Source: Candidatus Bathyarchaeota archaeon (lineage in GTDB: Archaea > Thermoproteota > Bathyarchaeia > Bathyarchaeales > Bathycorpusculaceae). Taken from it: a stretch of DNA of 64,000 nt. The stretch lies in contig CAVZIW010000010.1 in NCBI GenBank assembly GCA_963775465.1, forward strand, positions 42,866 to 106,865, read 5' to 3'. The translations under genes and the position numbers were made by a program. Below are positions 24,242 to 62,591 of this stretch, one piece after another (position 1 is the stretch's first letter; each line of letters opens with the position of its first letter). The notes beneath the pieces are model-generated. The model saw only the letters and a program-made list of their open reading frames with translations, did not search any database and was not told the origin of the DNA.

Positions 24242-25724
24242 ACCGCGTTTCTATTCATGACTGAAAATTAATAAACCTGTATCCTGATGTTTGCTTGTTT
24301 CTAACCAAAATCATATTAACAAAATTATTTTATATACACGTAAAGAAAGCATGAGACCAGTAGAAAAGCTGATAATTAAAATGCAGGGCGAGTCAGAGCC
24401 TTAATGTTGTTCACGGCCCATCAAGGTTTGTCTTGGTCGCTTCATGGTCTTTCACCGTTTTGACCATGTTGCTCAAGCCTTTTTGCAACATTGCTGTTCA
24501 GCCCATCGAAGCAGATTCTTTGTCGCGTACCGATTTTCTTGCTGTTTCAACCGATGCGCTCTTTGCTTCAATGCATCGCCTTTAAAGCGTACTCCCCGAC
24601 CTGCAATAACATATTACCCAACCATCCAATATAGGCAATTCTGAGCAAATAGAACGCAAATATGTCTCAACTATCTAATTCATTTTATCTTTTGGGGACA
24701 AATGTGGATGATGCTTCGTCAATATTCTCCAACGGTCTAATTCCTTAGCTGCAAATTTTGACATAAACAGTGCAATTTGACATGAACAACGCAACTTTTT
24801 AAAAAATTGGGCAAGAGTTGGTGTCTGTTTACATAGTGCAAAAACTGCAATTGGAACAGCAAAAAATTGTTTGATGTTCTATTTACTAGATGATCCGGAA
24901 GTATGAATAAAAAAAGCTTCCGAATCAGATCACTGTCTAAGCTTAAGCTTTTTCAGAAAATGGATTGCAAACTTCTATATGTTAGATAATATAGCTTTGA
25001 AATAGAAGAGATTGATTATGAGATTGGAACGTTATAAATCAATTAGAAAAAAACCGAAAAGAGATAACACAATAACTAAATCCAAAAAACGTATGCTTGC
25101 AAAACCCAAAACATCCACTTCTGCAGCTGTACCAAAATTGCGTGAAATCTACTCTGAAAAAATTGAGTGGGCAACACGCTTAATTCCGAAACCAAAAGAA
25201 GAATAAATGAATCAACGAAAATAGTTTCAATTGAGGCAGGTTGATTGATGAACCCCTGAGGCTCAGGATGCAAAAGGTTCAAAACTGACAGAATTCATAA
25301 GCACGAGCCGAATCGGATTTAACCTAATTCACAAGCTTATTGCTATTTTAGCAGTCGGTTCTATCATGCATTTCTATTCCCAAGCAGTTTCGAGGAGCAT
25401 AGGTTATTATAAAAGTGTGTCTTGTGCTATTCTTCACTTTTATAGTCGTCCACTTATCGGCGTATTTTTCTCTAAAGATTTTTTCAGATTATGCTTTGTA
25501 TTTCTCTGCCATCATACCATTTTTGATTCAAGTGTTTAATATTTTAACTATATAGTTGATTATATTTTGATTTATGTTGAATTCTGCATATGATAATTGA
25601 CTATTAATTTTTAGTGTTTGGATATTGCAAAATGTTATATACTATTAGTTATGGAAAATAGCAGTTTAGTTGAGTGAATAGGCTTATGGCTTTTTTGCTC
25701 AATAAATTAAATGGAGAAAAAAAT

Positions 25725-28352
25725 ATGAAAATATTTAAAACTAAAGCGATAGCTACTGCAATATCTTTGCTTCTGGTGCTTAGCGTTGTTGTCTCTATCT
25801 CTAGCCTTCCTTCTGCTGATGCTTACAATACTTCAACTCAAGATGCCATTGATGCTGGTATGAACTGGGATTTGCCCCAGGATGCTTCGAATCTTAGGCT
25901 TTTGATGTGGGAGCGGTATCAAGATCATATACCTACTCAGGTGTATATGGTTATGTCGCCTAACCCGGTTGGTGTTGGACAGCAAGTTTCTTTTGTGTTG
26001 TTTATGCCCCAGCAGCCTCGAGGCGCAAACGCAGCTAATGACATTAGGTATTCCTACACTGTTGATGTTACTGATCCTAATGGTGTTAAAACAACTCTTG
26101 GACCTATCAAGTCTGACTCTACAGGAACTGCATACACGTTATACTCACCCTCAGAAGTTGGAAACTACACTGTTACCGTGAATTTCCTTGAATTACTCTA
26201 TCTCTGGCAAGGATCAAGTACTGAACGAGACTATTACGGTGTTACCTATAATAGTGCATCGTACACAAAGAATTTGATTGTCCAGCAGGAACCTGTTTTA
26301 CCTACAGGTTGGACTGACCAACCCTTACCTACAGAGTACTGGGTTCGACCAATTGAAGGCACAAACACTCCCTGGTACCAGGTAGCAAGCAATTATCTCA
26401 GCGGTCCTGGCGACAATGACCTATATGGATCAGGAAACCAGTTCCAGAGGTATGGCGTTGCCCCTAACAGCGCGCACATTCTGTGGACAAAAGTCACTGA
26501 AGACGGCGGCCTAGTTGGCGGAGAGCAATTCTCTGTTCCTGGAGAAGTTTTCAATGCAGGTCACCAATATCAGACTCGGTTTACTAACCCAATAATCATG
26601 TGGGGACGTCTCTACTACGAGCTTCCAGTTACATGGGCTGGCGTTAACGGCGGCTGGATTTGTGTTGACTTAAAGACAGGCGAAACAATCTGGGAAAATA
26701 GGGACATGGGTGCATCTGGTACCGGTATATCTGACCCGGCTTTCGGCTACTACTATGACTTAGACAACATGAATAATCACGGTGTTGTAACTCCCGGTTG
26801 GCTATTCTCAAGCAACTTTGGACACTCGATCCATCCACGCTACGGCATATATGACCAACTTCAATTAACTGGCGTTCCTTCTGGTTTTGAGGTACGCGCA
26901 CAACAAGGCGAACATATCCGCGTCCAAGTTACCAGCAGCGGCAACATGTATCAATGGAACTCAAGCAAAGTCTTTGACGACTCTGAAAGCGGAGTACAAA
27001 CAGCCAATAATCCCACGGATTTCGACTTTAACGTTTCAACTCCGTGGAGTGTTGGAATGTCTAGCATAAGCGTACAAGAAGTCGTTCTTGGCGAATACAT
27101 CTTTGGCAGAAACGGCAGTCACCCAGTAGGCACAGGCGGTCCACGCTTTGACTATCCAAGTCCAGTAACTATATGGGCAGCAAGTCTAAAACCCGGAAGT
27201 GAAGGTCAACTTCTATACATGAAAAACATTGACACAATACCAAATCCACCAGACGGCGGCGAAATCATGATGGAACGCGTCGGAGAAGGAGTAGCAGTTT
27301 TTGTGAAGCTCTTTGAACGACAATGGATTGGCTATGACACCCAGACTGGCAATAAACTTTGGGAGTCAGATCCTCCGGAAGCAGAATTTAATCCATTTGG
27401 CTACTATAGCTTCCCAAGCTTGATTCATACTGAATCTACTGCTATAGCTGACGGAAGATTGTTCACTGGTGGCTATACCGGAGCTGTGATGTGCTACAAC
27501 CTAACTACTGGTCAAAAGATTTGGCAGTATGAAGACTACACTGGCAGAACTGTATTTCCATACTTTACTTTGATGCTTGGCACGGTTGCTGATGGTAAAA
27601 TCTTTGTTGGCACTCATGAGCACTCTGCTGATACACCGCTGTTTAAAGGAAACAAAGTTCGCGCAATCAACGTTACTGACGGCTCTGAAGTTTGGGCTAT
27701 GTATGGCTGGGCTCATCCTTACACGTTTGCTGTTGCTGATGGCACTTTGATCTACTGGAACAACTATGATCATCAGGTGTATGCTGTTGCGAAAGGGCCA
27801 ACTTCGATGACTGTTGAAGCGCCTCATGCTGGTATTGCTCTGGATCAAAGTCTCGTGATTACTGGTACTGTTATGGATATTTCAGCTGGTACACGTCAGC
27901 ATGAGCAGGCTATGCGGTTCCCCAATGGTGTTCCTGCTGTTTCTGAGGATAGCATGAGTCACTGGATGGAGTATGTCTATATGCAGAAAGCTCGACCGAC
28001 TAATGCTACTGGTGTTGAAGTATCTATCGATGTGGTTGATTCTAATGGCAACTACCGAAACATTGGCACAACTACTAGTGATGCAAACGGCGTGTTTAGT
28101 TTGGATTGGATGCCTGATATTTCAGGAAAGTATACTGTGATTGCATCGTTTGCCGGCAGCGAAGGTTATTGGCCTTCACATGCAGAAACTGCTTTCGTAG
28201 TTGACGAGGTAGCACCAACAACAGCGCCAACGGAGGCTCCGCAGCAGTCTGCAGCTGACATGTACTTTGTTCCCGCAGTCGCAGGAATCATCGTAGCAAT
28301 AGTGATTGTTGGCATTATGCTGGCTCTATTGCTCATAAAGAAACGGCCATAA
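25725..28352 (+). CDS. PQQ-like beta-propeller, secreted and C-terminally membrane-anchored protein (paralog A)
   Basis: ATG 25725 after GGAGA; signal peptide, PLPTEYW.RPI, G..xW blade repeats, EHS, RFPNGVPAVS, TM helix + KKRP. Confidence 0.9.
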   Translation: MKIFKTKAIATAISLLLVLSVVVSISSLPSADAYNTSTQDAIDAGMNWDLPQDASNLRLLMWERYQDHIPTQVYMVMSPNPVGVGQQVSFVLFMPQQPRGANAANDIRYSYTVDVTDPNGVKTTLGPIKSDSTGTAYTLYSPSEVGNYTVTVNFLELLYLWQGSSTERDYYGVTYNSASYTKNLIVQQEPVLPTGWTDQPLPTEYWVRPIEGTNTPWYQVASNYLSGPGDNDLYGSGNQFQRYGVAPNSAHILWTKVTEDGGLVGGEQFSVPGEVFNAGHQYQTRFTNPIIMWGRLYYELPVTWAGVNGGWICVDLKTGETIWENRDMGASGTGISDPAFGYYYDLDNMNNHGVVTPGWLFSSNFGHSIHPRYGIYDQLQLTGVPSGFEVRAQQGEHIRVQVTSSGNMYQWNSSKVFDDSESGVQTANNPTDFDFNVSTPWSVGMSSISVQEVVLGEYIFGRNGSHPVGTGGPRFDYPSPVTIWAASLKPGSEGQLLYMKNIDTIPNPPDGGEIMMERVGEGVAVFVKLFERQWIGYDTQTGNKLWESDPPEAEFNPFGYYSFPSLIHTESTAIADGRLFTGGYTGAVMCYNLTTGQKIWQYEDYTGRTVFPYFTLMLGTVADGKIFVGTHEHSADTPLFKGNKVRAINVTDGSEVWAMYGWAHPYTFAVADGTLIYWNNYDHQVYAVAKGPTSMTVEAPHAGIALDQSLVITGTVMDISAGTRQHEQAMRFPNGVPAVSEDSMSHWMEYVYMQKARPTNATGVEVSIDVVDSNGNYRNIGTTTSDANGVFSLDWMPDISGKYTVIASFAGSEGYWPSHAETAFVVDEVAPTTAPTEAPQQSAADMYFVPAVAGIIVAIVIVGIMLALLLIKKRP

Positions 28353-28413
28353 AAAAACAAAATCAACAAAACAACAACCTTCCCTTTTTTTGTTTAGTGC
28401 ATTGGAAAAATAT

Positions 28414-28516
28414 GGGGGCTGAGAAGGCTCTGGTTAAACTTCAAAATAGCCATAGCTATTAAAAGAGAGTTTGCATTTTCTCTTTTCTCCAAATTTCCAG
28501 AGCCTCAGCAAACCCT
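28414..28516 (+). ncRNA. BHB-closed structured RNA element, copy 1
   Basis: GGG-GCTG-AGA-AGGCTCTGG...CCAGAGCCT-CAGC-AAA-CCC; two internal hairpins; recurs after paralogs C and D. Confidence 0.75.
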
Positions 28517-28662
28517 GCTTTCAGTCAATGGAATATGTCTCTCTCAATTTTATAAGGTAAAAAGCTGGCTGATTTTTCAAAAAACTCTAATTGAACCCAG
28601 ATTTGAACTATTCACAAAACCTCAATAGTTTCAAAAGTGTGAGGATCGCATTTGATGGATTG

Positions 28663-47283: not shown

Positions 47284-47440
47284 TGATGCAGGGGTGGGAT
47301 TCGAACCCAAGTGAGAGGGAGATATCACCCGCAAAACCTTCTTTTCTTTTTTTGATGCCGTTTTGAGGTGGATGTGCTTAAGGATTAGTAGTATAGTAAG
47401 AGTAAATAGCAACTTTTTGAAGTCGAGAGAGATTAAAATT
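47284..47440. repeat. tRNA-Leu-like 3' fragment plus dispersed repeat
   Basis: Reverse complement GGGTTCGAATCCCACCCCTGCA; shares GAACCCAAG..GGAGATATCACCCGCA..TGATGCC with 57867-57960 and 27 identical nt (inverted) with 63001-63027. Confidence 0.65.
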
Positions 47441-47879: not shown

Positions 47880-50444
47880 TTATGGCCGCTTTCGTAGCAT
47901 CAGTAACGCCAGTATAATTCCAACGATAAAGATTGAAACTATTATTCCAGCAACGGCTGGAACAAAGTACATGTCAGCGACAGATTGCACTGGAGCTTCA
48001 GTTGGCATTGGAGTTGCAGGAGCTGGATCAACTGCAAAAGAGGTCACTGCGTGTGATGGCCAGTAAGATTCGCTGCCTGCAAAAGAGGCGTAAACAGTGT
48101 ATAGACCTTCTATGTCAGGTTTCCAGTTATAGGTGAAAAATCCGTCAGTGCTTGTTGTGGTACCGATTTCGCGGTAGTTTCCATTTGAGTCAACAACGCT
48201 CAGTACGATTGGAACGCCTATTGTGTCTGTAGGGCGAGGTTTCTGCATGTAAACGTAGTCCATCCATAGACCTTGACTTGCATCTGAAACTGCAGGAACA
48301 CCGTTGGGGAAACGTGCAGCTTGCTCGTTTTGATTTGTGCCGGCAGCAATATCTGTAATTGTACCTTGAATTAATACACTACTTCCCAAGTTAACAACGT
48401 TATTTGGCACACTGACTGTCGTTGCGCTTGGTCCTTTGCCAATACAGTATAGTTGACCATCATAATAGTTGTAGTATACCCAAAATCCGTCTGCGACAAC
48501 AGTGCCATCCCGACCGAGTTGTCCTCCGAATGCATCAAGAGTAAAGATTTCTGTTCCGTCAGTTGCATTAACACATCTTGCAAGTGCCCCTTTCCACATT
48601 GGCGTATCAGGTGAGTGTTCACTAGACATCATGTAGACTTTTCCGTCAGCAAGAGCATATATGAATGTAGGGTATCTACCCCAAGATGACTGCAGATTTG
48701 TACTTGTGCTGTTTCCTGTTCCACCATTTCCGTAGCTCCATAACAGTGTTCCATCTTTAGTATCCCAGCAATATAGCACTCCATCCCATCCTATGTTGTA
48801 GAGACGTCCGTATGCGGTAGCTGGAGTTAAGCCGACAGTGCCCAAATCGAAATATGCTAAGTCAGAAGCACCTTCAACAGGAGGGGTCTGCCACATTAAA
48901 TCTCCCGTGTCAAGATTGTAACCTATCTGCAATGATGTTTCTTTGTCTCGGAACATTATAACTCGGTTGACTGGATCTATTGCGGTTAATCGACGTGTTA
49001 CGTTGTTAGGCGGCGCTGAATAATCTTTCATCCATAACAATGAGCCTTCGTGGCCTGGTTTCAGACTAATAGCCCACATAGTGTACGGATCTGGGGTGAG
49101 AAATGAACTAAATCCGGCAAAGGAGGTCGTTCCTAAAATTATGTCACCAACTAACGCGTACCTTATGGCTGTTGACGTTGGCAGTTCTGAGGGTAAGGTG
49201 ACATTCCAGTCATAACGCTCCGGTAAGCTTGCATCTATCTCGCTATTGATCCATCCTGCAGGGTTAGTACCGGAAAGAGGCAGTAGTCTGGAAGAGTTCC
49301 ATTGAGCAAGCCAATGATTTCTCAAGTCAATCTGGTAGCGCAGTATTTCTCCTTTTGGTCCAGCTGCAGCAAAACCTGAAGGCACATTAGTAACATTCAA
49401 ACCGGTTAGCTGTCCCGTGCGGGGGTCAATTGCCTGCCATGTCTGAGTGCTAAATCCAGAAGTTACCATAAGCAAACCATCTGGCATTACGCCATGCTGA
49501 TTCTCATAGTCAAGAGCATAATAGTAGCCAAATGATGGAACCCCAACACCTGTAGTATTGAAGGTCCATAGTTCTTCTCCAGTTCGTAGATCGACCGCTG
49601 CATATCCGCCGTTGCTTCCGTAATTCTGGTAGGGCATTTCAAAGAACAACCTACCACCCATCGCTATTGGGTTGAGAAATCGCGGATTATAAGTGAGCCC
49701 TTGATAGAAGGTTTCACCCGGTGTTCCTAAGCCGCTTCCTCCTACAACACCTGCATCACTGAGGGGTTTGGTCCACATTACGTGTGCGCTACCAGGTGCT
49801 GTGCCGTCTGGTTGGTATAATTGATGTGCTGTATTTCCAGATATGTATGGACTTCCTAGCCAGTTTGACGCAATTGTCCACCAGTCAGTGTTTTGTCCTT
49901 CGATGGGTCGTGTCCAGTATTCTGTTGGCAAGGGATAACTGTTTATGGGAGCAGGTAAAGGTTCGTCTTGCACGGTTATTTTTACTGTCTTGCTAGTTGC
50001 ACCTAGAAAGACTGTGTTGGTCCATTGTCTCATCGTGGAAGTGTCATTCCATGTATATACCTGATCAGGAAAGCTAAACACAAAAGAATAAGTGCCAACC
50101 TGGTCAGGGGTATATGAAGCCACTTGCCCGTTTCCTGTATCTTGAATGACAGGCCAATACATGGTTTCATTTTTTCCATCGGGTTTTGTGATCGTTAGGG
50201 TGTAGTCGTGTCTTCTTATGTCATTAGTTACTGCTGCACCAGGAAAAGTTGGGTTAGCGAACATGATTATTGTAAGTTTTTGCCCTACACCTATTGGGTC
50301 TGGTGACACGTCAAGGAGTGGCCAAGATTGTGTTTTTGACTCCGCACTAGCAGGTTGCAGAAATACAATGGAAACAAGCGTTGACATTAGCAGAAGCATA
50401 CATATTATAGTTACAAGTTTTTTTTTTGAAAATTGCGATAACAT
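47880..50444 (-). CDS. PQQ-like beta-propeller membrane-anchored protein (paralog B)
   Basis: Same architecture: signal peptide, PLPTEYWTRPIEG, SEHSP, RFPNGVPAVSD, TM helix + RKRP. Confidence 0.9.
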   Translation of the reverse strand: MLSQFSKKKLVTIICMLLLMSTLVSIVFLQPASAESKTQSWPLLDVSPDPIGVGQKLTIIMFANPTFPGAAVTNDIRRHDYTLTITKPDGKNETMYWPVIQDTGNGQVASYTPDQVGTYSFVFSFPDQVYTWNDTSTMRQWTNTVFLGATSKTVKITVQDEPLPAPINSYPLPTEYWTRPIEGQNTDWWTIASNWLGSPYISGNTAHQLYQPDGTAPGSAHVMWTKPLSDAGVVGGSGLGTPGETFYQGLTYNPRFLNPIAMGGRLFFEMPYQNYGSNGGYAAVDLRTGEELWTFNTTGVGVPSFGYYYALDYENQHGVMPDGLLMVTSGFSTQTWQAIDPRTGQLTGLNVTNVPSGFAAAGPKGEILRYQIDLRNHWLAQWNSSRLLPLSGTNPAGWINSEIDASLPERYDWNVTLPSELPTSTAIRYALVGDIILGTTSFAGFSSFLTPDPYTMWAISLKPGHEGSLLWMKDYSAPPNNVTRRLTAIDPVNRVIMFRDKETSLQIGYNLDTGDLMWQTPPVEGASDLAYFDLGTVGLTPATAYGRLYNIGWDGVLYCWDTKDGTLLWSYGNGGTGNSTSTNLQSSWGRYPTFIYALADGKVYMMSSEHSPDTPMWKGALARCVNATDGTEIFTLDAFGGQLGRDGTVVADGFWVYYNYYDGQLYCIGKGPSATTVSVPNNVVNLGSSVLIQGTITDIAAGTNQNEQAARFPNGVPAVSDASQGLWMDYVYMQKPRPTDTIGVPIVLSVVDSNGNYREIGTTTSTDGFFTYNWKPDIEGLYTVYASFAGSESYWPSHAVTSFAVDPAPATPMPTEAPVQSVADMYFVPAVAGIIVSIFIVGIILALLMLRKRP

Positions 50445-51538: not shown

Positions 51539-51919
51539 TTTTTTTGCTTTTTACCTTATTGTATGGGCTATTCTTTAGTCTAACGATTTGCTACAATCAA
51601 GAGAACTCGTTTTTCCTCTTCTGCGCGTGCTTTGTTACTTACTGAGGCCAGTATGTCACTAACCTACTCAATAGCTTTTGTTAACTTTAGTCATATAATC
51701 AACTAATAAGACTTCAAAACTCGGGCCATAATAAGGATCTCGATAAAATTAAAGAATTAAACAAATCGCAATTTCCTGATGTTGAACTTCTTTATGTTAC
51801 GACTGGACCAGCTGAGAGCTTCCTTCGGGTTACTAAATCGACGCCTTTTGAGAGGCAGGATTTTTCTGTGCGATTACTCTACAATATTGAAGGGTTGTAG
51901 ATTCTTTTTAGTTTCTTGA

Positions 51920-52002
51920 GGGCAAAAATACCATACAATAACCATAGTGAGTTAGGTTATTCATTCTCCTTTAACCTAAAAATCCAGAACCCCAGCAAAC
52001 CC
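51920..52002 (+). ncRNA. Truncated copy of the BHB RNA element (3' half only)
   Basis: ATAGTGAGTTAGGTTATTCATTCTCCTTTAACCTAAAAATCCAGAACCCCAGCAAACCC is nearly identical to 57760-57819; 5' arm missing. Confidence 0.6.
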
Positions 52003-52365
52003 TTAATGTTTTGCATAAATCCTATTTCTTTTTAGATATATTGAATGTTGTGTTGTTTGTGCTGTCTTGTTTTTAATATTTATTTTTCATGGACCTGATT
52101 TTGTAAGTAAAATGTTCAGTTTGAAATTATACAGTTTTTCATGTTATTTATTCTATTAATTTATATAGCTAATATTTTGTCGAACTAATTCGATTAAAAA
52201 CTTAATTGCTTATATAGAATGATTCATAACATCGTTATAAAATTAATATAATCGTAAATTTGCAAAGTTATATATACTAATTGCAAACAAAATATGCACT
52301 CTGTTAAGCAAATTTATTCTAGTGAACTTGTTTAACATTAAAGAAATAAAATTGGAGAAAATAAA

Positions 52366-54924
52366 ATGAAAAAACTAAACAAGAAATCATTCTCTTTAAT
52401 TTCATTGTTTCTAATGCTATCAATGGTTATCCCCTTTGCAGCCGTTCCTGCTACAACTGCCCACACACCAGCATGGGAGATTCCCTCTTTCGCTTACATT
52501 GCTGCGCAACCAAGTCCCGTGGGCGTAGGGCAACAAGTACAGGTTTACATGTGGGTTGACGCACCTTTAACATCAGCCTCCGAAGCCAACGACATAAGAA
52601 GACACGACTACACCCTAACGATCACAAAGCCTGATGGAATTAAAGAAACAGAGCAGTGGCCAATCATTTGGGATACAACCGGCGTACAATTTTATTCATT
52701 CACACCCGACCAAGTTGGCGACTACACTCTGCTATTTGAGTACAAAGGCCAAGAATATACTTGGAACACAACGTACTCTACAAGAACTTGGGCAGGAGAT
52801 ATTTTTCTGGCAGACAGCGCAACAACAACATTAGTTGTGCAACAAGAACCATTAACTCCACCTATACTAAGTTATCCAATCCCAAGCGAATACTGGACTA
52901 GACCCATAGAAGGACAGAATACCGATTGGTATAGTATCTCCTCCAACTGGCTCAATTCTCCATTCAATTGGGTCGGAGACAGTGGCACACAGGGTGCAGT
53001 GTCATCTTGCGATACCCAAGGCGGTTACGGCAGATTACAGCCAGACGGTATTGCACCTAACAGCCCACACATAATGTGGACAAGACCTATGCAGGACGGC
53101 GGAGTTGTTGGCGGCGACATATATGCTGTCGAAGGCGAAACATACTACATGGGAGGTTCTTACAATGTTAGATTCAGGGACGCAATAGTGATGTATGGAC
53201 GGCTATACTTTGAACAATCTTGGGGTAATTCGGGTAGCGGCGGAGACTACATTTGCATTGATTTACGAACTGGAAAAGAACTATGGCGACTTGATGCTTC
53301 AACTATCGCTTCAGTTGGAAAACCAGTTACAGGTTACCTCTACTGCTATGACATGATGAACCAACACGGTGTCATACCGAACGGTTTGTTATTCACCCAA
53401 AACTTTGCAAGAGCATACGACCCAATGACAGGAAGAGTCCTTGATCTTAACATAACCAATGTTCCTAGAGGCATAGCGGCACCCGGACCACAAGGAGAAG
53501 TTCTAAGATACGTATACAGTTCTGCATCTCAAAGTTTAGCTCAGTGGAACTCATCAAATGTATTTGTAACCCAAACTTCTGGAACTATAGATGCAGGCAC
53601 TGCTGCACGTTACGACTGGAACAAAACATTAGCCCTTTCTGGAACATGGACCATCAATAGGCACATTATACCAGGTAATCTATTGCTTATGGAGCAAGGT
53701 AACTTTGGGGGGCCTAGAAATCCACAACCAGGTATGAACATAACCGCAGTTAGCATTAAGCCAGAAACAGCAGGACAAATCTTATGGACTAAATTTTATT
53801 CTGTAGCGCCAAATAACGAAACCAGAAAAGTGATGGCAATCGATGAAGATTCAGGTGTATTTGTAACTCAAGACAAAGAAAGCTTGCGACTTACTGGTTT
53901 TAGCGTCATCGATGGAAGCCAAGTGTGGACTGTTGAACCTGACGATGCAAAATGGGATACAATGCGAAGCACATCTTTAGTAGCCTACGGCAATCTCTAC
54001 GTTTCTGGCTTTGATGGCGTACTACACTGCTATGATATGAAAGACGGCAATCTACTTTGGACCTACGGCAATGGTGGTGTTGGAAACTCTACTTACTCCG
54101 GTCTTGAGACTGCATGGGGTCATTATCCGCTCTTTGTAGACGTTATCGCTGATGGAAAAGTGTACTTGGGCTCATCTGAGCACTCTCCTGACTCGCCATT
54201 CTATAAAGGTACTCAGTTCCGTTGTATCAACGCTTCCACAGGCGAAGAAATTTGGACAATGATGGGTTGGGGTACAGGTATGTATGTAGGCCAAAGCGAC
54301 ATAGTGGCAGAAGGATTCTTCATCTACCTGAACTGTTATGACATGCAAATTTACTCTGTTGGCAGAGGACCTAGCGCCATGACAGTTACGGCACCTGACG
54401 TTGCTGTTGCGCTCGGTTCATCAATTACCATCAAAGGCACAGTCACTGACATCTCTGCAGGCACAAAACAGGATGAACAAGCTGCTCGATTCCCTAACGG
54501 TGTTCCAGCGGTATCTGATGCAAGCCAAAGCGCTTGGATGGAGTACGTCTATATGCAAAAGCCACGTCCAATGGATACAATTGGTGTTCCAATCGTACTG
54601 AGCGTTGTTGACTCAAACGGTAACTACCGAGACATTGGAACAACCACTAGTGATGCTAATGGATTCTTTAGCTTAAACTGGATGCCAGATATTGAAGGCG
54701 CATACACTGTCTACGCATCTTTCGCAGGCAGCGAATCTTACTGGCCATCGCACGCTGTAACAGCATTTAGCGTAGATTCGGCACCAGCAACACCCGCACC
54801 AACAGAAGCACTTGTATTATCGATGACAGATGCATACTTTGTTCCTGCAGTCGCAGGCATAATCGTCGCGATAGCCATAGTCGGTATTGTACTGGCTCTA
54901 TTGCTCATAAGAAAACGACCATAA
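52366..54924 (+). CDS. PQQ-like beta-propeller membrane-anchored protein (paralog C)
   Basis: Same family motifs; TM helix + RKRP. Confidence 0.9.
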   Translation: MKKLNKKSFSLISLFLMLSMVIPFAAVPATTAHTPAWEIPSFAYIAAQPSPVGVGQQVQVYMWVDAPLTSASEANDIRRHDYTLTITKPDGIKETEQWPIIWDTTGVQFYSFTPDQVGDYTLLFEYKGQEYTWNTTYSTRTWAGDIFLADSATTTLVVQQEPLTPPILSYPIPSEYWTRPIEGQNTDWYSISSNWLNSPFNWVGDSGTQGAVSSCDTQGGYGRLQPDGIAPNSPHIMWTRPMQDGGVVGGDIYAVEGETYYMGGSYNVRFRDAIVMYGRLYFEQSWGNSGSGGDYICIDLRTGKELWRLDASTIASVGKPVTGYLYCYDMMNQHGVIPNGLLFTQNFARAYDPMTGRVLDLNITNVPRGIAAPGPQGEVLRYVYSSASQSLAQWNSSNVFVTQTSGTIDAGTAARYDWNKTLALSGTWTINRHIIPGNLLLMEQGNFGGPRNPQPGMNITAVSIKPETAGQILWTKFYSVAPNNETRKVMAIDEDSGVFVTQDKESLRLTGFSVIDGSQVWTVEPDDAKWDTMRSTSLVAYGNLYVSGFDGVLHCYDMKDGNLLWTYGNGGVGNSTYSGLETAWGHYPLFVDVIADGKVYLGSSEHSPDSPFYKGTQFRCINASTGEEIWTMMGWGTGMYVGQSDIVAEGFFIYLNCYDMQIYSVGRGPSAMTVTAPDVAVALGSSITIKGTVTDISAGTKQDEQAARFPNGVPAVSDASQSAWMEYVYMQKPRPMDTIGVPIVLSVVDSNGNYRDIGTTTSDANGFFSLNWMPDIEGAYTVYASFAGSESYWPSHAVTAFSVDSAPATPAPTEALVLSMTDAYFVPAVAGIIVAIAIVGIVLALLLIRKRP

Positions 54925-54984
54925 GAAAATCAAAAAAACAATCTTTCCCTTTTTTTAGTCAATAAATTTGCATTGGAGTAGAAT

Positions 54985-55092
54985 GGGGGCTGAGAGGGCT
55001 CTGGTTACACTTCAAAATAGCCATAAGCTGTTGAAAGAGAGTTTGCATTTTCTCTTTTCTCCATTTAGTTGGCCAGAGCCTCAGCAAACCCT
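54985..55092 (+). ncRNA. BHB-closed structured RNA element, copy 2
   Basis: GGG-GCTG-AGA-GGGCTCTGG...CCAGAGCCT-CAGC-AAA-CCC; stem differences from copy 1 are G-U compatible. Confidence 0.75.
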
Positions 55093-55200
55093 TCTGACTT
55101 GACCAATTTGTAGCAAGCCTGACCTTAAACAAGTTTTAAATAAGTAAGAAAACATAGGCAGATTGCACATTTTCGTGTAGCAAATGCAGGAGAGAAGAGA

Positions 55201-57663
55201 ATGGCTAAAAAAAGAATATTAAAAGTATTTTCTTTGATTGTATTGTTTGCTTTTGCAGCCTCACTGATAACATGTTATCCGCTTACAAGTGCGCAGTCGG
55301 TCGATACGAAAGAAAGCTATGCTGTAATCATGGCTGAACCTGACCCCGTTGGAGTTGGCCAGAACATGCTACTCGTATTGGGCATATCAGAGCCACTGCC
55401 AAACATCGCCTACCAATGGACAGGTCTAACAATTACTGTTACAAGGCCTAATAACACCACTGAAACCCTTGGTCCATACAACACTGACCCCACAGGCACA
55501 ACATTTGCATCATACGTTCCCCTCCAAATAGGAACATATTCTTTCCAAACAAACTTTCCAGGAAACTGGCTTAACACAACTAGCTTTGACAGATGGTACA
55601 AGCCCAGCACCAGCCACGTAGTTTCTGTCGTCGTACAACAAGAACCCGTGTCGATGCCCCCCGCAGTTCCTCTTCCAACAGAGTATTGGACACGCCCAAT
55701 AAACACTGAAAACCAGCAATGGTTCCAAATCGGAGGAAACTGGCTAATGGCATACTATGATGGCAACACTAATCCTTTTAACCCATACACATCAGCACCA
55801 AACAGTCCCCACATTATGTGGACAAAAGAGATGGATTTCGGAGGAATAGTTGGAGGCAACTATAGCGATACTGCTTTCTACTCTGGCGAGTCTTATGAAA
55901 ACAAATGGGATCCACCAGTAATAATGGACGGAAGACTCTATTATAACAAACGATTAGGCTCATCTTCGATACTTGGAATGACTTGCGTTGATTTAGAAAC
56001 TGGCAAAGAAATCTGGTTCCAAGATGGCGTTACCCTTAGTTTTGGTCAACTGCTGAATTTTGATTCACCTAACCAACATGGAATAATACCTTATCTATGG
56101 TCAACCAGCGGTACTACTTACAAGATGTACGATGCCTTCACAGGTCAACATATTCTAGATATTACAAATGTCCCAGGAGGCACATTAATTTTTGGTCCTA
56201 AGGGTGAACTCTTGAAGTATAATCTTTTTACCCAGGGCGGTGTTTTAAAACTTAGCCTTTGGAATTCCACGGCAGTTGATGGTTTTCTGTCAACAAGCTA
56301 TGGTGAAGAGTCACCATTATGGAGACCTCCCACAAATGGAGTGCTTAATGGAACTACTGGAACTATGTGGACAGTAAATACTACTGCTGTTTCTGGGAGC
56401 CCGCGAACTTCCACTATTGTTGATGATGTATTAGTTGCTACTGCTAACAGTCCTGAACAGACTGCCAGAGGATTATACACCCAAGAAACAGGATGGTTGC
56501 ATTACGGTTTTAGTTTGAAAACTGGTTCTGAAGGGCACCTTATTTGGCAAAAAACACGTACTGTGCCAGGTAACATGACATTGATGATTACTGGCGCCCG
56601 AGGTACCGTTGCTGCCGCAGGGATCTATACAGCACTTCTAAAAGAATCAAAACAATACTTAGGCTACGATGTTCAAACAGGAAATCAGTTATGGATAACT
56701 GATTCTGTTGAAAGCGATTGGTCAATGTTCCAGATGGGTGGTCAAGCTATTGCATACGACAAGTTCTACACAGCAACCTATAGTGGGGAAGTTAATGCAT
56801 ACAACATAGCGGACGGTACAACGGCTTGGACGTACTTTGATGGAAGCAGCGGTGTTAGTACTCCCTATGGACACAACCCATTCTGTGCAGGTGTTACTGG
56901 TAGCGCTTCAGTAGTTACAGTTGCAGACGGCAAAGTCTTTGCGATTAACAATGAGCACTCGCCAAGCATGCCTCTCTATAGAGGTTATCAGTTGCATGCA
57001 ATAGACGCGGAAACAGGAGAAGGATTATGGACTATACTTGGATGGTATCAACACCCAGTTATTGCCGACGGTTCTCTTGTGACATTAAACGCTGCTGACA
57101 ACCGCATATACAGTTTTGGAAAAGGTCCAAGTGCGTTGACAGTCGAGGCACCTATGGCTGGTATAGCACAAGGCTCAAGTATAGTAATTCGAGGACGAGT
57201 AACTGACATTGCAGCTGGAACAGAGCAAGTCGCTGCTAGATTCCCGAATGGAGTTCCCGCAGTCTCAGACGATAGCATGAGCCATTGGATGGAGTATGTT
57301 TACATGCAACAGCCTTTCCCAACAAATACAACAGGCGTTCCAGTGATGATTAACGTCATCGACTCTAACGGCAACTACCGCAACATCGGAAATGCTACAA
57401 GCGATTCATCAGGCATGTTTAGCCTAAGCTGGAACCCTGACATCGAAGGAGCTTACACTGTGATAGCTACATTTTCAGGTTCAGACTCTTATTGGCCATC
57501 ATATTCTGAAACAAGTTTTGTTGTTGATCCAGCAGCACCAACTGCGTCACCGTATCCAGTAACAACTATGCCTCCTACAGAAATGTACATCGCTGCCAGC
57601 ACGGTTGCTATCATCATTGCTATTGCCATAGTCGCAGTATTATTGTTGAGAAAACGGCCATAA
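55201..57663 (+). CDS. PQQ-like beta-propeller membrane-anchored protein (paralog D)
   Basis: Same family motifs; TM helix + RKRP. Confidence 0.9.
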   Translation: MAKKRILKVFSLIVLFAFAASLITCYPLTSAQSVDTKESYAVIMAEPDPVGVGQNMLLVLGISEPLPNIAYQWTGLTITVTRPNNTTETLGPYNTDPTGTTFASYVPLQIGTYSFQTNFPGNWLNTTSFDRWYKPSTSHVVSVVVQQEPVSMPPAVPLPTEYWTRPINTENQQWFQIGGNWLMAYYDGNTNPFNPYTSAPNSPHIMWTKEMDFGGIVGGNYSDTAFYSGESYENKWDPPVIMDGRLYYNKRLGSSSILGMTCVDLETGKEIWFQDGVTLSFGQLLNFDSPNQHGIIPYLWSTSGTTYKMYDAFTGQHILDITNVPGGTLIFGPKGELLKYNLFTQGGVLKLSLWNSTAVDGFLSTSYGEESPLWRPPTNGVLNGTTGTMWTVNTTAVSGSPRTSTIVDDVLVATANSPEQTARGLYTQETGWLHYGFSLKTGSEGHLIWQKTRTVPGNMTLMITGARGTVAAAGIYTALLKESKQYLGYDVQTGNQLWITDSVESDWSMFQMGGQAIAYDKFYTATYSGEVNAYNIADGTTAWTYFDGSSGVSTPYGHNPFCAGVTGSASVVTVADGKVFAINNEHSPSMPLYRGYQLHAIDAETGEGLWTILGWYQHPVIADGSLVTLNAADNRIYSFGKGPSALTVEAPMAGIAQGSSIVIRGRVTDIAAGTEQVAARFPNGVPAVSDDSMSHWMEYVYMQQPFPTNTTGVPVMINVIDSNGNYRNIGNATSDSSGMFSLSWNPDIEGAYTVIATFSGSDSYWPSYSETSFVVDPAAPTASPYPVTTMPPTEMYIAASTVAIIIAIAIVAVLLLRKRP

Positions 57664-57718
57664 AACCAAAAATTCCTTTCTCTTTTTTTTAGTCTCTTGA
57701 TGCAATGGAGAAATATGT

Positions 57719-57819
57719 GGGCTGAGAGGGCTTTGGAGCAAAATCACAGTACAATAGCTATAGTGAGTTAGGTTATTCATTTCTCCTTTAACCTAAAAAT
57801 CCAGAGCCCCAGCAAACCC
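57719..57819 (+). ncRNA. BHB-closed structured RNA element, copy 3 (different interior)
   Basis: GG-GCTG-AGA-GGGCTTTGGA...TCCAGAGCCC-CAGC-AAA-CC; interior hairpin TTAGGTTA/TAACCTAA with loop TTCATTTCTCCTT. Confidence 0.72.
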
Positions 57820-57866
57820 AATAACTATCTACTTTTGTTTACCCCCTGGTCCATTTTGGAACACCT

Positions 57867-57960
57867 GTGGATTTGAACCCAAGCGAAAGTGGAGATATCA
57901 CCCGCAGTTCCCCTTTTTTTCTAACTGATGCCAGTGAGCAAAACAACATTAGGGACTAGC
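57867..57960. repeat. tRNA T-loop-linked dispersed repeat
   Basis: GGATTTGAACCCAAGCGAAAGTGGAGATATCACCCGCA..TGATGCC..TTAGGGACTAG, homologous to about 47294-47390. Confidence 0.6.
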
Positions 57961-58037: not shown

Positions 58038-58667
58038 TTGATGAGTATTTTGGAAAAAATAAAATCATTTACTTTGCCCAGTCTGCCCTATGACTACAAC
58101 GCTCTTTCACCTTATGTTTCAGAAGAACAGTTGAAACTTCATCATGACAAACACCATCAAGCCTACGTTAATGCTGCCAACGCAGCCTTTGAGAAAATGG
58201 ACAAAGCAAAACAAGACCCAAGCATAAGTCTGGACATGAAAGCTTTAGCAAAAGAGCTATCTTTCAACGTCGGCGGTCATATGTTGCACACGCTTTTTTG
58301 GGAGAACATAGCACCATCAGGTAAAGGTGGAGGAGGATCGCCGTCAGGAGCAGCTTTAGAAATGATTAACATGGGTTTTGGAAGCTTTGAGCAATTTAAA
58401 AAACAGTTTTCTACCGCTGCAATCAGTACGGAAGGTTCAGGTTGGGCAGTGCTAGCCGCACACCCATGTATTGGAAGACCATTTATCCTGCAAATTGAAA
58501 AACACAACGTAAACGTGATTCCAGATTTTCAAGTCTTGATGGCTCTCGATGTTTGGGAACACGCTTACTATATCGACTACAAAAATGAAAGGGCAAAATA
58601 TGTCGAAGCCTTCTGGAACATAGTCAATTGGGAGAAAGTCAACAAGAACCTCAGCCTAATTAAGTAA
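58038..58667 (+). CDS. sod: Fe/Mn superoxide dismutase
   Basis: [28 protein letters not shown]. Confidence 0.96.
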
Positions 58668-59294
58668 GTTAAATCTTGCTTTTTTTATTCTAATTAGAGT
58701 AAATTGTTCTGTTCGTCCGATTAAACTATTTTGCGATTTCATAACTACCACTACTCAACTCAATGACAGTGTTTACTCAAGAACTCTTCGATTGAAAGCT
58801 ATTGCCAAAAATATTAAGCTCAGGTTAGAATGATTTTGAACTAAGATTTGTGCTTTGGATCTGATTTCTAACTAGCTGCGCTCCTCCTCATATCCCGTCA
58901 ATATTCCCCACAATCGCCAAAACAGCACGACAAAACAATTTCTCTTTAAGAGGTATTGTTTTTTTCAGTATTAATGCGGTCGAGCGCGCGCGCACTTTCA
59001 GCTCAAAAGGCATAGTTGCACACAGAAACTCCTGTCTTCGGAAAACACCATTTCTCGGTTGAAAGTCAAATAATCAAGTCCTTGCATGAAAGTGTCAAAA
59101 ATGGGGTTTACAAAGAGAAGGATGCTTCATTGGTTGCCATTCAATTAATCGGTGTCTTCATTAAAGAACACAAAAAAGAAATATCGAGAGCCAAAAAAGA
59201 CTTAAGAAAACGATTTACTCGATTTCAGCCAAAAAACTTTGCTAAACTATAAAAGGACAAAACACGTTTTAAACATAATTTCAGGTTAATTGTT

Positions 59295-62200: not shown

Positions 62201-62591
62201 AGCTAAAATAATTACGCCAAATATTAAAATTGATGTTTCAGTGAGCAAAGATTTGGTGATCAATACCGACCTTCAATTACTCAAAAGAGTGCTCATAAAT
62301 CTTGTAACCAATGCGATTCAAGCTATGCCAAATGGAGGACAAATAACCATCAAAGCAAGGCGTGTCAATGAGGGGCAAGTGGAGATAAGCGTTGAGGATA
62401 CAGGGTTGGGTATTCCTGATGAGATTAAACCAAGGGTATTCACGCCTCTGTTTACTACTAAGGCTCAAGGCCAAGGCTTCGGTTTAGCCGTATGTAAAAG
62501 GGTAATTGAAGCTCAAGGTGGAACGATAGAATTTGAGAGCCCAGTGGGCAAAGGAGCAAAATTCACAATAAAGCTGCCAATCACTAAATGA
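59295..62591 (+). CDS. CheB methylesterase-CheR methyltransferase-PAS-histidine kinase fusion
   Basis: GASAGG, IQHL, GNDG (CheB); VTSFFR, CSTGEEAYS, CRNLLIY (CheR); STNEEL coiled coil; HDLRNPL, NAIQAM, DTGLGI, G.GFGL. Confidence 0.93.
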   Translation: MTLKTEEATNETSDQRDDAFPIVGIGASAGGLEPIRELLGHLPSTLGLSFVIIQHLAAGQESLLPEILARSTKMQVVQVTDNLEVIENHVYVIPPGTTMTLEGSYLKLVPKVAPQRPINAFFSSLALERKSQAIGIVLSGLGNDGTEGLKAIKAEGGITFAQEPKNAQYADMPRNAIDSQAIDFVLEPERIAKELTILARQPNLIHAKAKELEIQLSKEETDLRKILMLVKTAFGVDLTHYKQTTINRRITRRLVINKSKNLRQYVDVLRSDKKELQALFNDLLIGVTSFFREPKTFEILKQKVFPQIINERSPTTEKLRFWVPACSTGEEAYSLAIAFQEFLQDNDIVNVNVQIFGTDANEKSIEKARQATYPKAIEEAVSDIRLKQFFSKLDGRYQISKPIRDMCVFAKHDITSDPPFSNLDLIICRNLLIYFDVYLQERVLPVLHYGLKPDGFLVLGESESVGKFQYLFEPLTTKSAIFKKKRAQPQATIETGTFVPYATKKTYNPPQKIDAMTSLKQEVDSELIEQYAPATLLTNSNLDILLFRGQVNPYLTHESGTASFNVNKIVKKELKPQVQLAILRAKKENKAAIERVSLEEKDVNRTVEVMVKPFNASQFDETFLLISFKEILCPSVPKASIAEEGLKFGGEDLQERQIRELTEDLISSKQTLQSIIESHEATTEELRSTIEEAQSSNEALQSTNEELETAKEELQSSNEELQTLNEELKNRNELLTTINDDLANLIKNVDTTVVIVDNNFVIRRATASAWGVLNIQPSDIGHAIFATNIANFIKDLETKLNNVTTNFTQVVQEVPGQNGLYYELRIRPYLTSSKKIAGAVLTFVNITERKLLELQQKGHTEKLEADVRTQEAKLIASERMAAIGKTAGMVGHDLRNPLQTVVGELYLAGKTLEELPDSEQKGSLHESIATITEQTQYMDKIVSDLQTFVKPVEAHKEKVYLKKVIDHILAKIITPNIKIDVSVSKDLVINTDLQLLKRVLINLVTNAIQAMPNGGQITIKARRVNEGQVEISVEDTGLGIPDEIKPRVFTPLFTTKAQGQGFGLAVCKRVIEAQGGTIEFESPVGKGAKFTIKLPITK

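Follow-up and report, generated by a model that had tools for sequence, protein, structure and literature searches.

We analysed a window of 64,000 nucleotides from a genome assembly of Candidatus Bathyarchaeota. The Bathyarchaeia are abundant, mostly uncultured archaea of sediment and soil; we know of no genetics for this group, and to our knowledge its RNA regulation is almost wholly uncharted. The window contains four paralogous surface-protein genes: gene A (25725-28352, + strand; 875 aa), which encodes a PQQ_2 beta-propeller (E = 1.6e−12), an Ig-like domain and a C-terminal TM-anchor; gene C (52366-54924, + strand; 852 aa); gene B (55201-57663, + strand; 820 aa); and the fourth paralog, gene D (47880-50444, − strand). 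The translation initiation region (TIR) of gene A lies at 25707-25734 (+ strand), with GGAGA at 25713-25717 and the ATG at 25725. For gene C these motifs are at 52354-52358 and 52366, the start region of gene B contains GGAGAGAAGAGAAUG (55189-55203) and that of gene D contains AGGAGAAA. A preliminary description of this DNA had stated that GGAGA precedes the ATG in all four paralogs, and this is the case.

The window also holds three copies and one partial copy of a conserved structured RNA element of approximately 120 bases, which is found 3′ of many genes of this surface-protein family. Copy 1 (28397-28518, + strand) is a full covariance-model match (124.7 bits) with a fold. The 5′ half of its closing stem (28415-28433, + strand) consists of an outer helix h (GGG, 28415-28417), a central helix H (GCUG, 28418-28421), a 3-nt bulge (AGA, 28422-28424) and an inner helix h′ (28425-28433). 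The 3′ half (28497-28515, + strand) consists of h′ (28497-28505), H (CAGC, 28506-28509), a 3-nt bulge (AAA, 28510-28512) and h (CCC, 28513-28515). The interior contains a guide with anti-start and anti-SD portions, UUUGCAUUUUCUCUUUUCUCC (28470-28490, + strand), in which the loop and the CUCC are unpaired with a probability of ~1. Between the stop codon of gene A and the element lies a CCC followed by a run of seven Ts (28382-28391, + strand), which resembles an archaeal oligo-T termination signal.

Copy 2 (54968-55094, + strand; 126.8 bits) is preceded by the same CCC and T7 run (54947-54956) and comprises h (54986-54988), H (54989-54992), a bulge (54993-54995), h′ (54996-55004), the guide (55042-55062) and, on the 3′ side, h′ (55073-55081), H (55082-55085), an AAA bulge (55086-55088) and h (55089-55091). 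Copy 3 (57700-57822, + strand; 109.7 bits) has a type II interior and a T8 run upstream (57683-57690); its parts are h (57718-57720), H (57721-57724), a bulge (57725-57727), h′ (57728-57736), a hairpin (57768-57775/57789-57796) with the guide as its loop (57776-57788), and then h′ (57801-57809), H (57810-57813), a bulge (57814-57816) and h (57817-57819). The partial element (51890-52005, + strand; 32.7 bits) retains the guide (51960-51971), the 3′ strand of h′ (51984-51992), CAGC (51993-51996), AAA (51997-51999) and CCC (52000-52002), but its 5′ arm is missing and it therefore has neither the bulge-helix-bulge (BHB) nor a stable fold (z = −0.02).

The element was found in 21 of 24 genomes of the same genus, in 39 of the 151 genomes that were sampled for the order Bathyarchaeales and on at least 120 metagenome contigs, with 15 to 23 copies per genome. 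In the genome of the window all 15 strong copies follow a PQQ-propeller surface-protein paralog on the same strand, 30 to 302 nt from its 3′ end, and most copies sit 30-45 nt past the stop codon of a family gene. In a second genome, G040, the element is carried by 14 of the 15 family genes; 14 of its 17 elements lie behind a family gene in the same orientation and the other 3 have no upstream paralog. The paralogs are often in tandem, although most elements have no paralog next downstream. Elements were also found back-to-back in four genomes, and as stand-alone copies. A run of at least five Ts was present within 60 nt upstream in 60 of 66 elements (C(2+)T(5+) in 50 of 66), and may end most transcription before the element is reached. 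Within the window there were no Rfam 15 matches at the gathering threshold, the best sub-threshold match scoring 15.4 bits against a threshold of 80, and the sole Rfam match of C/D type scored 11.6 bits against a threshold of 55. A scan designed for bacterial-type rather than archaeal signals found 1 promoter-like site, where 1.3 were expected, and no terminators. We conclude that the element belongs to a structured RNA family that had not been described before, and we name its interior the anti-TIR guide.

Among 97 distinct elements, 93.2% of cells in the stem alignment are paired and 10 of 14 pairs show double-sided changes; none of 500 shuffles reached the observed values and slid controls were 22-50% paired. 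These compensatory changes argue for selection on RNA structure. From 5′ to 3′ the order is h (GGG), H (GCUG), a 3-nt bulge, h′ (9-10 bp), the interior, h′, H (CAGC), an AAA bulge and h (CCC), and the closing stem has BHB geometry: a 3-nt bulge, a 4-bp helix and a 3-nt bulge, with the bulges on opposite strands, each bulge following its own central-helix strand on the 3′ side. The central helix is GCUG in 93/97 and CAGC in 90/97 elements, with 98.7% of cells paired. The 5′ bulge is 3 nt long in 95/97 elements and the 3′ bulge (AAA or a one-base variant) in 103 of 104 aligned rows. The inner helix has 10 pairs, of which 91% of cells are paired and all ten show double-sided changes. The outer helix has only 3 bp (82.4% paired, 2 of 3 pairs covarying), its outermost pair being unpaired in 34/97 elements, yet with 14 double changes. 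When the same geometry was applied as a strict rule to 102 independent metagenome elements, 83 followed it and 19 did not.

This strand arrangement agrees with that of the pre-tRNA BHB described in PMC4090602. By a cleavage rule that we infer from that description, the predicted EndA-excised segments are 28424-28511 for copy 1 (+ strand, 88 nt), 54995-55087 for copy 2 (+ strand) and 57727-57815 for copy 3 (+ strand). The genome encodes the enzymes, with two EndA-domain (PF01974) ORFs (98.1 and 82.9 bits) and one RtcB (586 bits). As BHB geometry is that of an EndA substrate, it predicts excision and circularisation of the element. As candidate positive controls for the BHB in the same genome, tRNAs and 16S flanks were examined: ARAGORN found 44 tRNAs, 6 with predicted introns, and there was no clean BHB in the MFE folds of four intron-bearing tRNAs or in the 16S flanks. 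Strings representing the circular junction and the ligated flanks had no matches in 305 DNA sequences; absence of the junctions is expected for DNA.

The preliminary description had claimed that the interiors of the elements are antisense to the ribosome-binding and start regions of the paralogs, with reciprocal best matches. We found that its observations were partly confirmed and its interpretation partly supported. The interior shared by copies 1 and 2, TTTGCATTTTCTCTTTTCTCC, occurs exactly twice (28470-28490 and 55042-55062) against a chance expectation of 0.01, with the anti-AUG in the 8-nt loop of a AAAAGAGAG/UUCUCUUUU hairpin and CUCC unpaired immediately 3′ of it. TTCAT(T)TCTCCTT likewise forms the loop of an 8-bp hairpin in copy 3 (57776-57788) and in the partial copy (51960-51971). 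What had been regarded as two different interiors align with each other as homologous versions of a single motif and are not independent inventions. The match counts given for copy 1 (13/14 to gene C, 10 of them contiguous, and 9 contiguous to its own gene A) and for copy 2 (13/13 to gene A and 9 contiguous to its own gene C) are correct. The reciprocity does not survive when duplex energy is used: for copies 1 and 2 the best paralog in the window is then gene B, which at −22.4 kcal/mol takes ranks 9 and 14 among 2206 gene starts, whereas genes A and C rank only 198-473 of 2206. By duplex energy, the start region of gene B is the top target in the window for the guides of copies 1, 2 and 3. 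The copy 3 loop had been matched to gene B, which has AGGAGAGA; the literal 8-mer AGGAGAAA matches gene D. It should be noted that both partners are of low complexity, the target being purine-rich and the guide pyrimidine-rich.

Across the family, the interior holds a pyrimidine-rich guide whose reverse complement is the conserved SD-spacer-AUG-codon-2 region of the genes; the interior consensus and the family SD-spacer-start consensus are exact reverse complements of each other. Start regions within an edit distance of 2 of the reverse complement of the genus-consensus interior were found in 5 of 44 family genes and in 0 of 2162 others; at an edit distance of up to 4 these numbers were 21/44 and 22/2162. 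When only GGAGA-led genes are considered, 19 of 28 family genes and 11 of 239 other genes lie within a distance of 4, an enrichment of the gene family that the preliminary description had put forward for checking. Judged from these sequences, the guide is antisense specifically to the SD-to-start region of the family, and not to any GGAG-led gene. Individual guides vary: single 40-nt guides of type I from the genome of the window had 2-8 family genes among their top 30 targets (Mann–Whitney P = 0.0012 to 0.71), and in that genome the interiors of types II and III did not favour the family by energy. At the family level the matching exceeds chance.

Guide and target were also compared between genera, using 80 gene-plus-element loci and 12 G040 loci; the pairing tests were based on our own heuristic calls of gene starts and kept the loci with an intact upstream ORF and a recognisable start (40/60, 14/17 in G040 and 13/20). 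Non-cognate pairing was 2.40 kcal/mol stronger when both partners came from the same genus than when they came from different genera (P = 0.0002 by label permutation; 75 pairs, 6 genera). This is accompanied by motif switches, with GGAG/CUCC and AUGCA/UGCAU on one side and GGUG/CACC and AUGAA/UUCAU on the other. In genus g1, the SD GGAG is present in 34/48 start regions and CTCC in 37/48 guides, with ATGCA in 15/48 start regions and GCAT in 38/48 guides. In G040, GGAG is found in 0/14 and GGTG in 5/14 start regions, and CACC in 6/14 guides; ATGCA and GCAT are found in 0/14 start regions and 0/14 guides, while TTCAT is found in 14/14 guides. The guide-RBS covariation that the preliminary description had suggested looking for is thus seen: in the genomes compared, guide and target co-vary between genera, with few independent contrasts. 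Exact runs of at least 15 nt were found in 5.9% of 574 same-genome non-cognate pairs (~34) and in 0.1% of 3074 cross-genus pairs. The longest perfect run was 23 nt (−18 to +4), and runs of 20-23 nt were found only within −18 to +9. The CAT..TCTCC segment, whose loss from homologous elements would have counted against the idea, is largely kept, with CAT in 83/97 distinct elements, CTCC in 77/97 and CAT followed by CTCC, TTCC, CCTC or CACC in 72/97. Whether the RNA is folded as a linear or as a circular molecule, the seeds of the guide stay unpaired.

The reading that we prefer, and to which we give about an even chance, is that the BHB-framed element is excised and circularised by EndA and a ligase, and acts in trans as an antisense RNA on the start regions of the family. 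Transcription would reach the element by reading through the oligo-T run that follows a paralog, or would start from a promoter of its own; EndA would cut both bulges and a ligase (RtcB) would circularise a product of ~70-107 nt. The stable RNA so released would expose the anti-AUG in a hairpin loop and keep the anti-SD single-stranded, and would base-pair, chiefly in trans, with family mRNAs from about −18 to +9, reducing their translation. If the excised guide RNA lowers translation of the family, the gene family would regulate itself post-transcriptionally. The stable RNA that the preliminary description had imagined gains a concrete route from the BHB that bounds the element and from the two EndA-domain proteins and RtcB encoded in the genome. 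If this reading is true, the element represents a new structured RNA family and a route of self-regulation for a family of ~40 surface-protein genes. It would also be, as far as we could find, the first BHB-framed element behind protein-coding genes with an mRNA-directed guide, the literature found describing only tRNA, rRNA, cbf5, SRP and omega-RNA cases. Excision makes a sharp prediction, a defined circular junction, which is checkable in existing metatranscriptomes. Counting against this reading are the upstream oligo-T runs, the short outer helix, the 19 metagenome elements that depart from the strict rule, the candidate positive controls that gave no clean BHB, the low complexity of both partners, the modest or missing family enrichment of individual guides, the small number of independent contrasts and the heuristic calling of gene starts.

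The EndA BHB substrates described in PMC4090602, PMC12558985 and PMC2738675 are tRNA introns, rRNA processing stems and the cbf5 pre-mRNA intron, and among them the tRNA-Trp intron carries a C/D box guide RNA; in archaea, circRNAs can arise when EndA cuts and the ends are ligated (PMC12558985). Our element resembles these substrates in its 4-bp central helix, its two 3-nt bulges on opposite strands, its inner flanking helix and, less surely, its short outer one (PMC4090602), as well as in the presence of EndA-domain genes and RtcB in the genome. It differs in lying behind protein-coding genes, outside any tRNA, rRNA or ORF, and in being multi-copy, with a guide that is antisense to the start regions of mRNAs and without C/D boxes. 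Another related system is that of trans-acting archaeal sRNAs which mask ribosome-binding sites, for example sRNA162 of Methanosarcina mazei (PMC3510493). The element, too, is proposed to be an archaeal RNA that base-pairs with its target mRNAs where translation begins; however, sRNA162 is a single-copy intergenic gene, whereas the element is a repeated module tethered to its target gene family, with an unrelated sequence and a different proposed biogenesis.

It is unlikely, in our view, that the element is solely a structural 3′ element, acting in 3′-end formation, stability or protein binding (for example through a U/C-rich tract for an Sm-like protein), with the complementarity a low-complexity by-product or the relic of an old inverted duplication. 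The arms are better conserved in sequence than the interior, 83/97 interiors contain a pyrimidine run of at least 9, and types II and III of the genome of the window have no target preference, all of which such a role would accommodate. It would not account for positions outside the compositional bias that co-vary with the targets (GCAU with AUGC, CACC with GGUG), for the confinement of the longest perfect runs to the start region, or for the strong enrichment of family start regions over other GGAGA-led genes.

The mean pairing of guides was −14.81 kcal/mol with the own start region and −15.84 kcal/mol with those of siblings (within-genome permutation: P = 0.009; 62 pairs, with paralog subfamilies that are not independent); in the best-sampled single genome the difference was not significant (14 pairs, P = 0.25). 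The own start region was the best target for only 5 of 61 guides, where 8 were expected, and a single exact run of at least 15 nt was found among 75 cognate pairs, compared with the 5.9% among non-cognate pairs. There is therefore a weak avoidance of the own start region. A precedent for pairing in cis is Staphylococcus aureus icaR, in which a pyrimidine-rich 3′-UTR motif pairs with the 5′-UTR SD in a proposed initiation block (PMC3868564). The element shares with icaR, as described there, a pyrimidine-rich motif 3′ of the CDS that is complementary to the SD region. It could by analogy be a 3′ UTR that folds back in cis on its own SD and start, limiting translation or triggering decay, and the short distance of most copies from the stop codon (30-45 nt) and the complementarity of own start regions fit this. 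We consider it improbable, because own starts pair worse than siblings' and are seldom the best target, an oligo-T run lies between CDS and element, no paralog is found upstream of 3 of the 17 elements in G040, and the BHB geometry suggests excision. The icaR case, moreover, is that of one bacterial gene whose mRNA is regulated in cis by its own 3′ UTR (PMC3868564), whereas the element is archaeal, serves ~37 paralog loci with no preference for its own start, and has a BHB-framed guide that covers the SD through codon 3.

The preliminary description had inferred a possible mutual-exclusion or antigenic-variation circuit. Carried furthest within the preferred reading, each expressed paralog would free, by EndA excision at its 3′ BHB, a circular antisense RNA that silences its siblings and spares its own mRNA, joining ~40 genes in one network. 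This extension is unlikely; if true, archaea would have their own form of antigenic or phase variation, operated by circRNAs.

A role at the DNA level is highly unlikely. Guide and start would here be short inverted repeats for site-specific inversion, either of a promoter between tandem paralogs or of a whole gene, or else the 3′ ORF end, the spacer and the next 5′ ORF end would undergo gene conversion as a unit. The paralogs are frequently in tandem, long perfect matches concentrate within a genome as recent sequence transfer would give, the copy 2 guide best matches a start just downstream, and a unit of 3′ end, spacer and next 5′ end is described for the S. aureus lpl clusters (PMC2568036). 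However, the downstream start is not preferred in 9 tandem pairs, most elements have no paralog behind them, the compensatory stem changes argue for selection on RNA structure, and none of 104 elements has a rearranged arm order. There is only a very remote chance that the element is a mobile BHB-intron-like or MITE-like repeat spread behind paralogs by chance, as its 15-23 copies per genome, back-to-back tandems and stand-alone copies might suggest, since a single gene family, in the same orientation, precedes 15/15 strong copies in the genome of the window and 14/17 copies in G040, the copies have diverged together with the genes and no empty-site (ligated-flank) sequences were found among the 305 searched.

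Several smaller candidates were rejected. A plus-strand small ORF from an ATG in the 5′ flank has an in-frame TAG at codon 5 or lacks a start codon in many copies. Minus-strand ORFs from the reverse-complement ATG had 1-47 aa and no conserved frame among 52 elements (a further 14 of the 66 extended elements were unscored, 12 lacking the CAT motif and 2 the 3′ anchor). Intramolecular pairing of an SD-like 5′ flank with the guide did not differ between cognate and non-cognate combinations (−8.31 vs −8.17 kcal/mol, P = 0.29, n = 63), and GGAG is present in only 35/97 element 5′ flanks. Aiming of the guide at the next downstream gene in tandem arrays was unsupported in the 9 pairs; in the 7 of these pairs for which four or more start regions of the same genome served as comparison, the downstream start region ranked from 1/12 to 10/11. 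In the window, the best match of the copy 2 guide is the start region of gene B, directly downstream of it.

Copy 1 of the element, a structured RNA unit of about 120 bases, lies behind the surface-protein gene A at 28397-28518 (+, 122 nt) and encloses the interior at 28461-28496; it starts 45 nt past the stop codon of this 875-aa ORF (25725-28352, +), directly after a CCC-T7 run. By repeat search and hand reading we placed copy 2 behind gene C (54968-55094, +), copy 3 behind gene B (57700-57822, +) and a partial copy which has lost its 5' arm at 51890-52005 (+). The sequence TTTGCATTTTCTCTTTTCTCC was found exactly twice in the window (28470 and 55042), against 0.01 expected occurrences. Folding confirmed the hairpins of the preliminary description as drawn there and its match counts between interiors and start regions (13/14, 13/13 and 9 contiguous nt) were correct on recount; the 8-mer AGGAGAAA, which it had ascribed to gene B, actually belongs to the fourth paralog, gene D (47880-50444, -), and gene B has AGGAGAGA.

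The host genome comprises 2.42 Mb in 15 contigs, with the window on contig C10, and contains approximately 37 loci of the paralog family (blastp against a heuristic ORF set). Genes A, B, C and D all carry a PQQ_2 beta-propeller (E-values 4.3e-9 to 2.2e-14), two of them have an Ig-like domain, and A, B and C share a C-terminal hydrophobic anchor followed by K/R-R-P. NCBIfam gave weak BamB-like propeller matches for the paralogs and nothing else. Several paralogs in this genome are split into 2-3 adjoining ORF fragments (e.g. C6:11148-13730, C1:44998-47773, C1:211250-214026 and C12:23970-26721), which suggests frameshifted or decaying copies; an intact element is still present behind some of them.

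A covariance model trained on 14 copies from the own genome, searched at E-values up to 1, gave 22 matches in the same genome, 15 of them at E ≤ 7.3e-17. All 15 of these strong elements follow a family ORF of the same orientation at a distance of 30-302 nt, and weaker matches trail three further family ORFs. In a first draw the element was found in 21 of 24 further genomes from the genus (1-23 copies each) and in 1 of 16 genomes from other genera. Across the order it was present in 39 of 151 genomes (own genome included) and 8 of 63 genera, belonging to the families f1 (20/35 genomes), f7 (17/35) and f6 (1/25); it was not found in the nine other families sampled within the order in this set. 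G040, a complete genome from a different family of this order, has an element behind 14 of its 15 family genes; 3 of its 17 elements lack an upstream paralog. A metagenome scan found the element on at least 120 contigs. Rfam gave no matches at gathering thresholds, the best sub-threshold score being 15.4 bits against a threshold of 80. Back-to-back tandem elements spaced by 5-25 nt were seen in four genomes (G097:C6:150786-151063, G013:C3:48585-48817, G082:C15:7256-7536 and G074:C7:68822-69093). Locus L290, on a predicted viral contig of 26,980 nt, starts within an element and carries its 3' half (1-78); this contig may be a host fragment taken for a provirus.

The closing stem of the element was 93.2% paired among 104 elements (97 distinct), with both-sided changes in 10 of 14 pairs (75 cells), in an alignment which was fitted to the covariance model and is thus biased towards structure. 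In 500 column shuffles not one of the five measures was reached, and pairing fell to 22-50% when the partner was shifted by 1-3 columns. The stem consists of an outer helix (GGG/CCC, 3 bp), an AAA bulge of 3 nt on the 3' strand, a central helix (GCUG/CAGC, 4 bp), a 3-nt bulge on the 5' strand and an inner helix of 9-10 covarying bp. The central helix is 98.7% paired; the outer helix, of only 3 bp, is 82.4% paired with double changes at 2 of its 3 pairs. The 5' bulge is 3 nt long in 95 of 97 elements (AGA 56, AGU 22, AAA 10, AAU 4) and the 3' bulge in 103 of 104 rows, reading AAA except for a few single-base variants.

This is the geometry of a bulge-helix-bulge (BHB). The archaeal splice-site motif, as outlined in PMC4090602, is a 4-bp helix with two flanking 3-nt bulges in which the first two anticodon bases lie in the central helix; this places each bulge 3' of its own strand of that helix, as in the element. 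As the canonical intron begins one base past the anticodon, cleavage would fall between the second and third bulge nucleotides; on this basis the segments cut out of window copies 1, 2 and 3 would measure 88, 93 and 89 nt. Of 102 distinct metagenome elements, an independent set, 83 satisfied a strict definition requiring 4 bp, a 3-nt bulge and no fewer than 8 of 9 inner pairs; 79 of these 83 also had at least 2 of the 3 outer pairs, and the predicted excised length of metagenome elements was 69-107 nt (median 87). PMC12558985 describes cutting by the splicing endonuclease EndA at BHBs in archaea, followed by ligation into circular RNAs. Two ORFs of the own genome carry the catalytic domain of this endonuclease, and one RtcB is also encoded. 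ARAGORN predicted introns in 6 of 44 own-genome tRNAs; folds of four of the intron-bearing tRNAs and of the 16S flanks, intended as positive controls, gave no clean BHB. One of the ARAGORN predictions, a tRNA-Ser with a 504-nt intron (G000:C4:96916-97506, -), had boundaries which seemed unreliable on folding.

The genus consensus of the element interior is TTTGCATT-T/C-rich-TCTCC and was written down before the start regions were seen. The paralog start regions are conserved as GGAGAAA(A)GAAAA-ATG-CAAA in the own genome and other MAGs, a sequence which, once reverse-complemented, gives the interior consensus. The CAT..TCTCC segment proved to be conserved, with CAT in 83 of 97 elements, CTCC in 77, and CAT followed by CTCC, TTCC, CCTC or CACC in 72. 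When the consensus was compared by edit distance to 2206 heuristic own-genome gene starts, 5/44 family genes vs 0/2162 others lay within a distance of 2, 10/44 vs 5/2162 within 3 and 21/44 vs 22/2162 within 4. Complementarity to the family beyond that to other GGAGA-led genes held for the consensus (19/28 vs 11/239 at distance ≤ 4) and failed for type II/III guides. Individual 40-nt own-genome guides gave a weaker result: the top 30 contains 2-8 family genes for type I guides and 0-2 for types II/III, whose pairing is weaker with the family than with the remaining GGAGA-led genes. Both the linear and the circular predicted fold present the anti-AUG in a loop and leave the anti-SD as single strand (unpaired probability ~1). 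Copies 1 and 2 have the central part of their guide paired, and copy 3 holds its complete guide within the loop.

Guide and start region also changed together between lineages. Within the genus, start regions contain GGAG in 34/48, GGTG in 0/48 and ATGCA in 15/48 cases and guides contain CTCC in 37/48, CACC in 1/48 and GCAT in 38/48. The start regions of G040 have GGTGA, GAGGA or GAAGGAAT and open with ATGAAA (GGAG 0/14, GGTG 5/14, ATGCA 0/14), and its guides read TTTTTTCAT...TCACC, ATCCTC or ATTCCTTC (CTCC 0/14, CACC 6/14, GCAT 0/14, TTCAT 14/14). Over 75 pairs from six genera, same-genus non-cognate pairing was 2.40 kcal/mol stronger than cross-genus pairing (label permutation P = 0.0002, a value which overstates the independent evidence since genera are few and paralog subfamilies related), and the diagonal of the genus-by-genus energy matrix was strongest or near-strongest in each row. 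Energies were calculated by RNAduplex without accessibility terms, from heuristic gene starts, and loci without an intact upstream ORF or clear start were excluded, which kept 40/60 loci, 14/17 in G040 and 13/20 of those added to reach the six-genus set.

A small ORF within the element was not conserved on either strand. Pairing of the guide with the element's own 5' flank was considered because this flank often looks like the start region in sense orientation (GCAATGGAGAAAAG); just 35 of 97 flanks contain GGAG, and flank-guide pairing showed no cognate preference (P = 0.29). A long inverted duplication is argued against by the longest complementary runs (23, 22, 21, 21 and 20 nt), which all join different paralogs and are confined to -18 to +9 of the start codon.

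Exact runs of at least 15 nt occurred in 1 of 75 cognate pairs (1.3%), 5.9% of 574 same-genome non-cognate pairs (~34), 0.7% of 1902 pairs from different genomes of a genus and 0.1% of 3074 cross-genus pairs. A guide's own gene was a slightly weaker target than its siblings (-14.81 vs -15.84 kcal/mol; 62 pairs, 9 genomes, within-genome permutation P = 0.009), with a mean normalised rank of 0.553 and the best position for 5 of 61 guides vs 8 expected. In the fully sampled G040 the difference was not significant (-16.33 vs -16.92 kcal/mol, P = 0.25), and the own gene was best for 0 of 14 guides. The next gene downstream in tandem arrays was not preferred (9 pairs). The reciprocal best matches between genes A and C (52366-54924, +) described previously stem from the counting of contiguous matches, as by energy gene B (55201-57663, +) is the strongest partner in the window for the copy 1 and copy 2 guides (-22.4 kcal/mol, ranks 9 and 14 of 2206), followed by gene D, with A and C at ranks 198-473 of 2206. 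A full mutual-exclusion circuit among the paralogs is improbable in our estimation.

The family and its genomic context, the covarying stem with its BHB geometry, the enzymes present, the start-region complementarity with its lineage covariation and the predicted guide exposure are shown here, and a mechanism can be proposed to which we give an even chance. Transcription would proceed through the element, EndA would excise it and a ligase circularise the product, and the freed RNA would pair with family mRNAs at about -18 to +9 and lower translation initiation. For 60 of 66 elements, the 60 nt upstream hold an oligo-T run of at least 5, which mostly ends 0-12 nt ahead of the element. In archaea such a run should end many transcripts before the element is reached, so its expression needs read-through or a promoter of its own. 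TATA-like boxes were spotted, by eye only, ~35 nt upstream of some stand-alone elements. Several elements in the genus (loci L017, L019, L024 and L040) share a conserved ~40-nt extension past the element, ending in 7-9 T, where the primary transcript may actually terminate.

In its proposed action the element is like the RBS-masking antisense RNAs of the icaR 3' UTR (PMC3868564) and sRNA162 of M. mazei (PMC3510493), and it resembles the BHB-excised tRNA introns, rRNA intermediates and cbf5 intron (PMC2738675). Unlike all of these, it forms a multi-copy module linked to the very gene family that it would target, sits behind ORFs and has no C/D boxes. The literature searched contained no account of an element of this kind, nor of RNA regulators in Bathyarchaeia.

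Two further direct repeats were observed in the window. One of 42 nt (74% identity, 47318-47359 and 57891-57932) starts GGAGATATCACCCGCA and has its second copy ~70 nt past element copy 3. The other, of 41 nt (80% identity, 58753-58793 and 62745-62785), lies just 3' of a superoxide dismutase gene (58038-58667) and of a CheB/CheR kinase gene (59295-62591, +; 1098 aa, a fusion of CheB methylesterase, CheR methyltransferase, PAS, HisKA and HATPase_c), and may be another 3'-end element.
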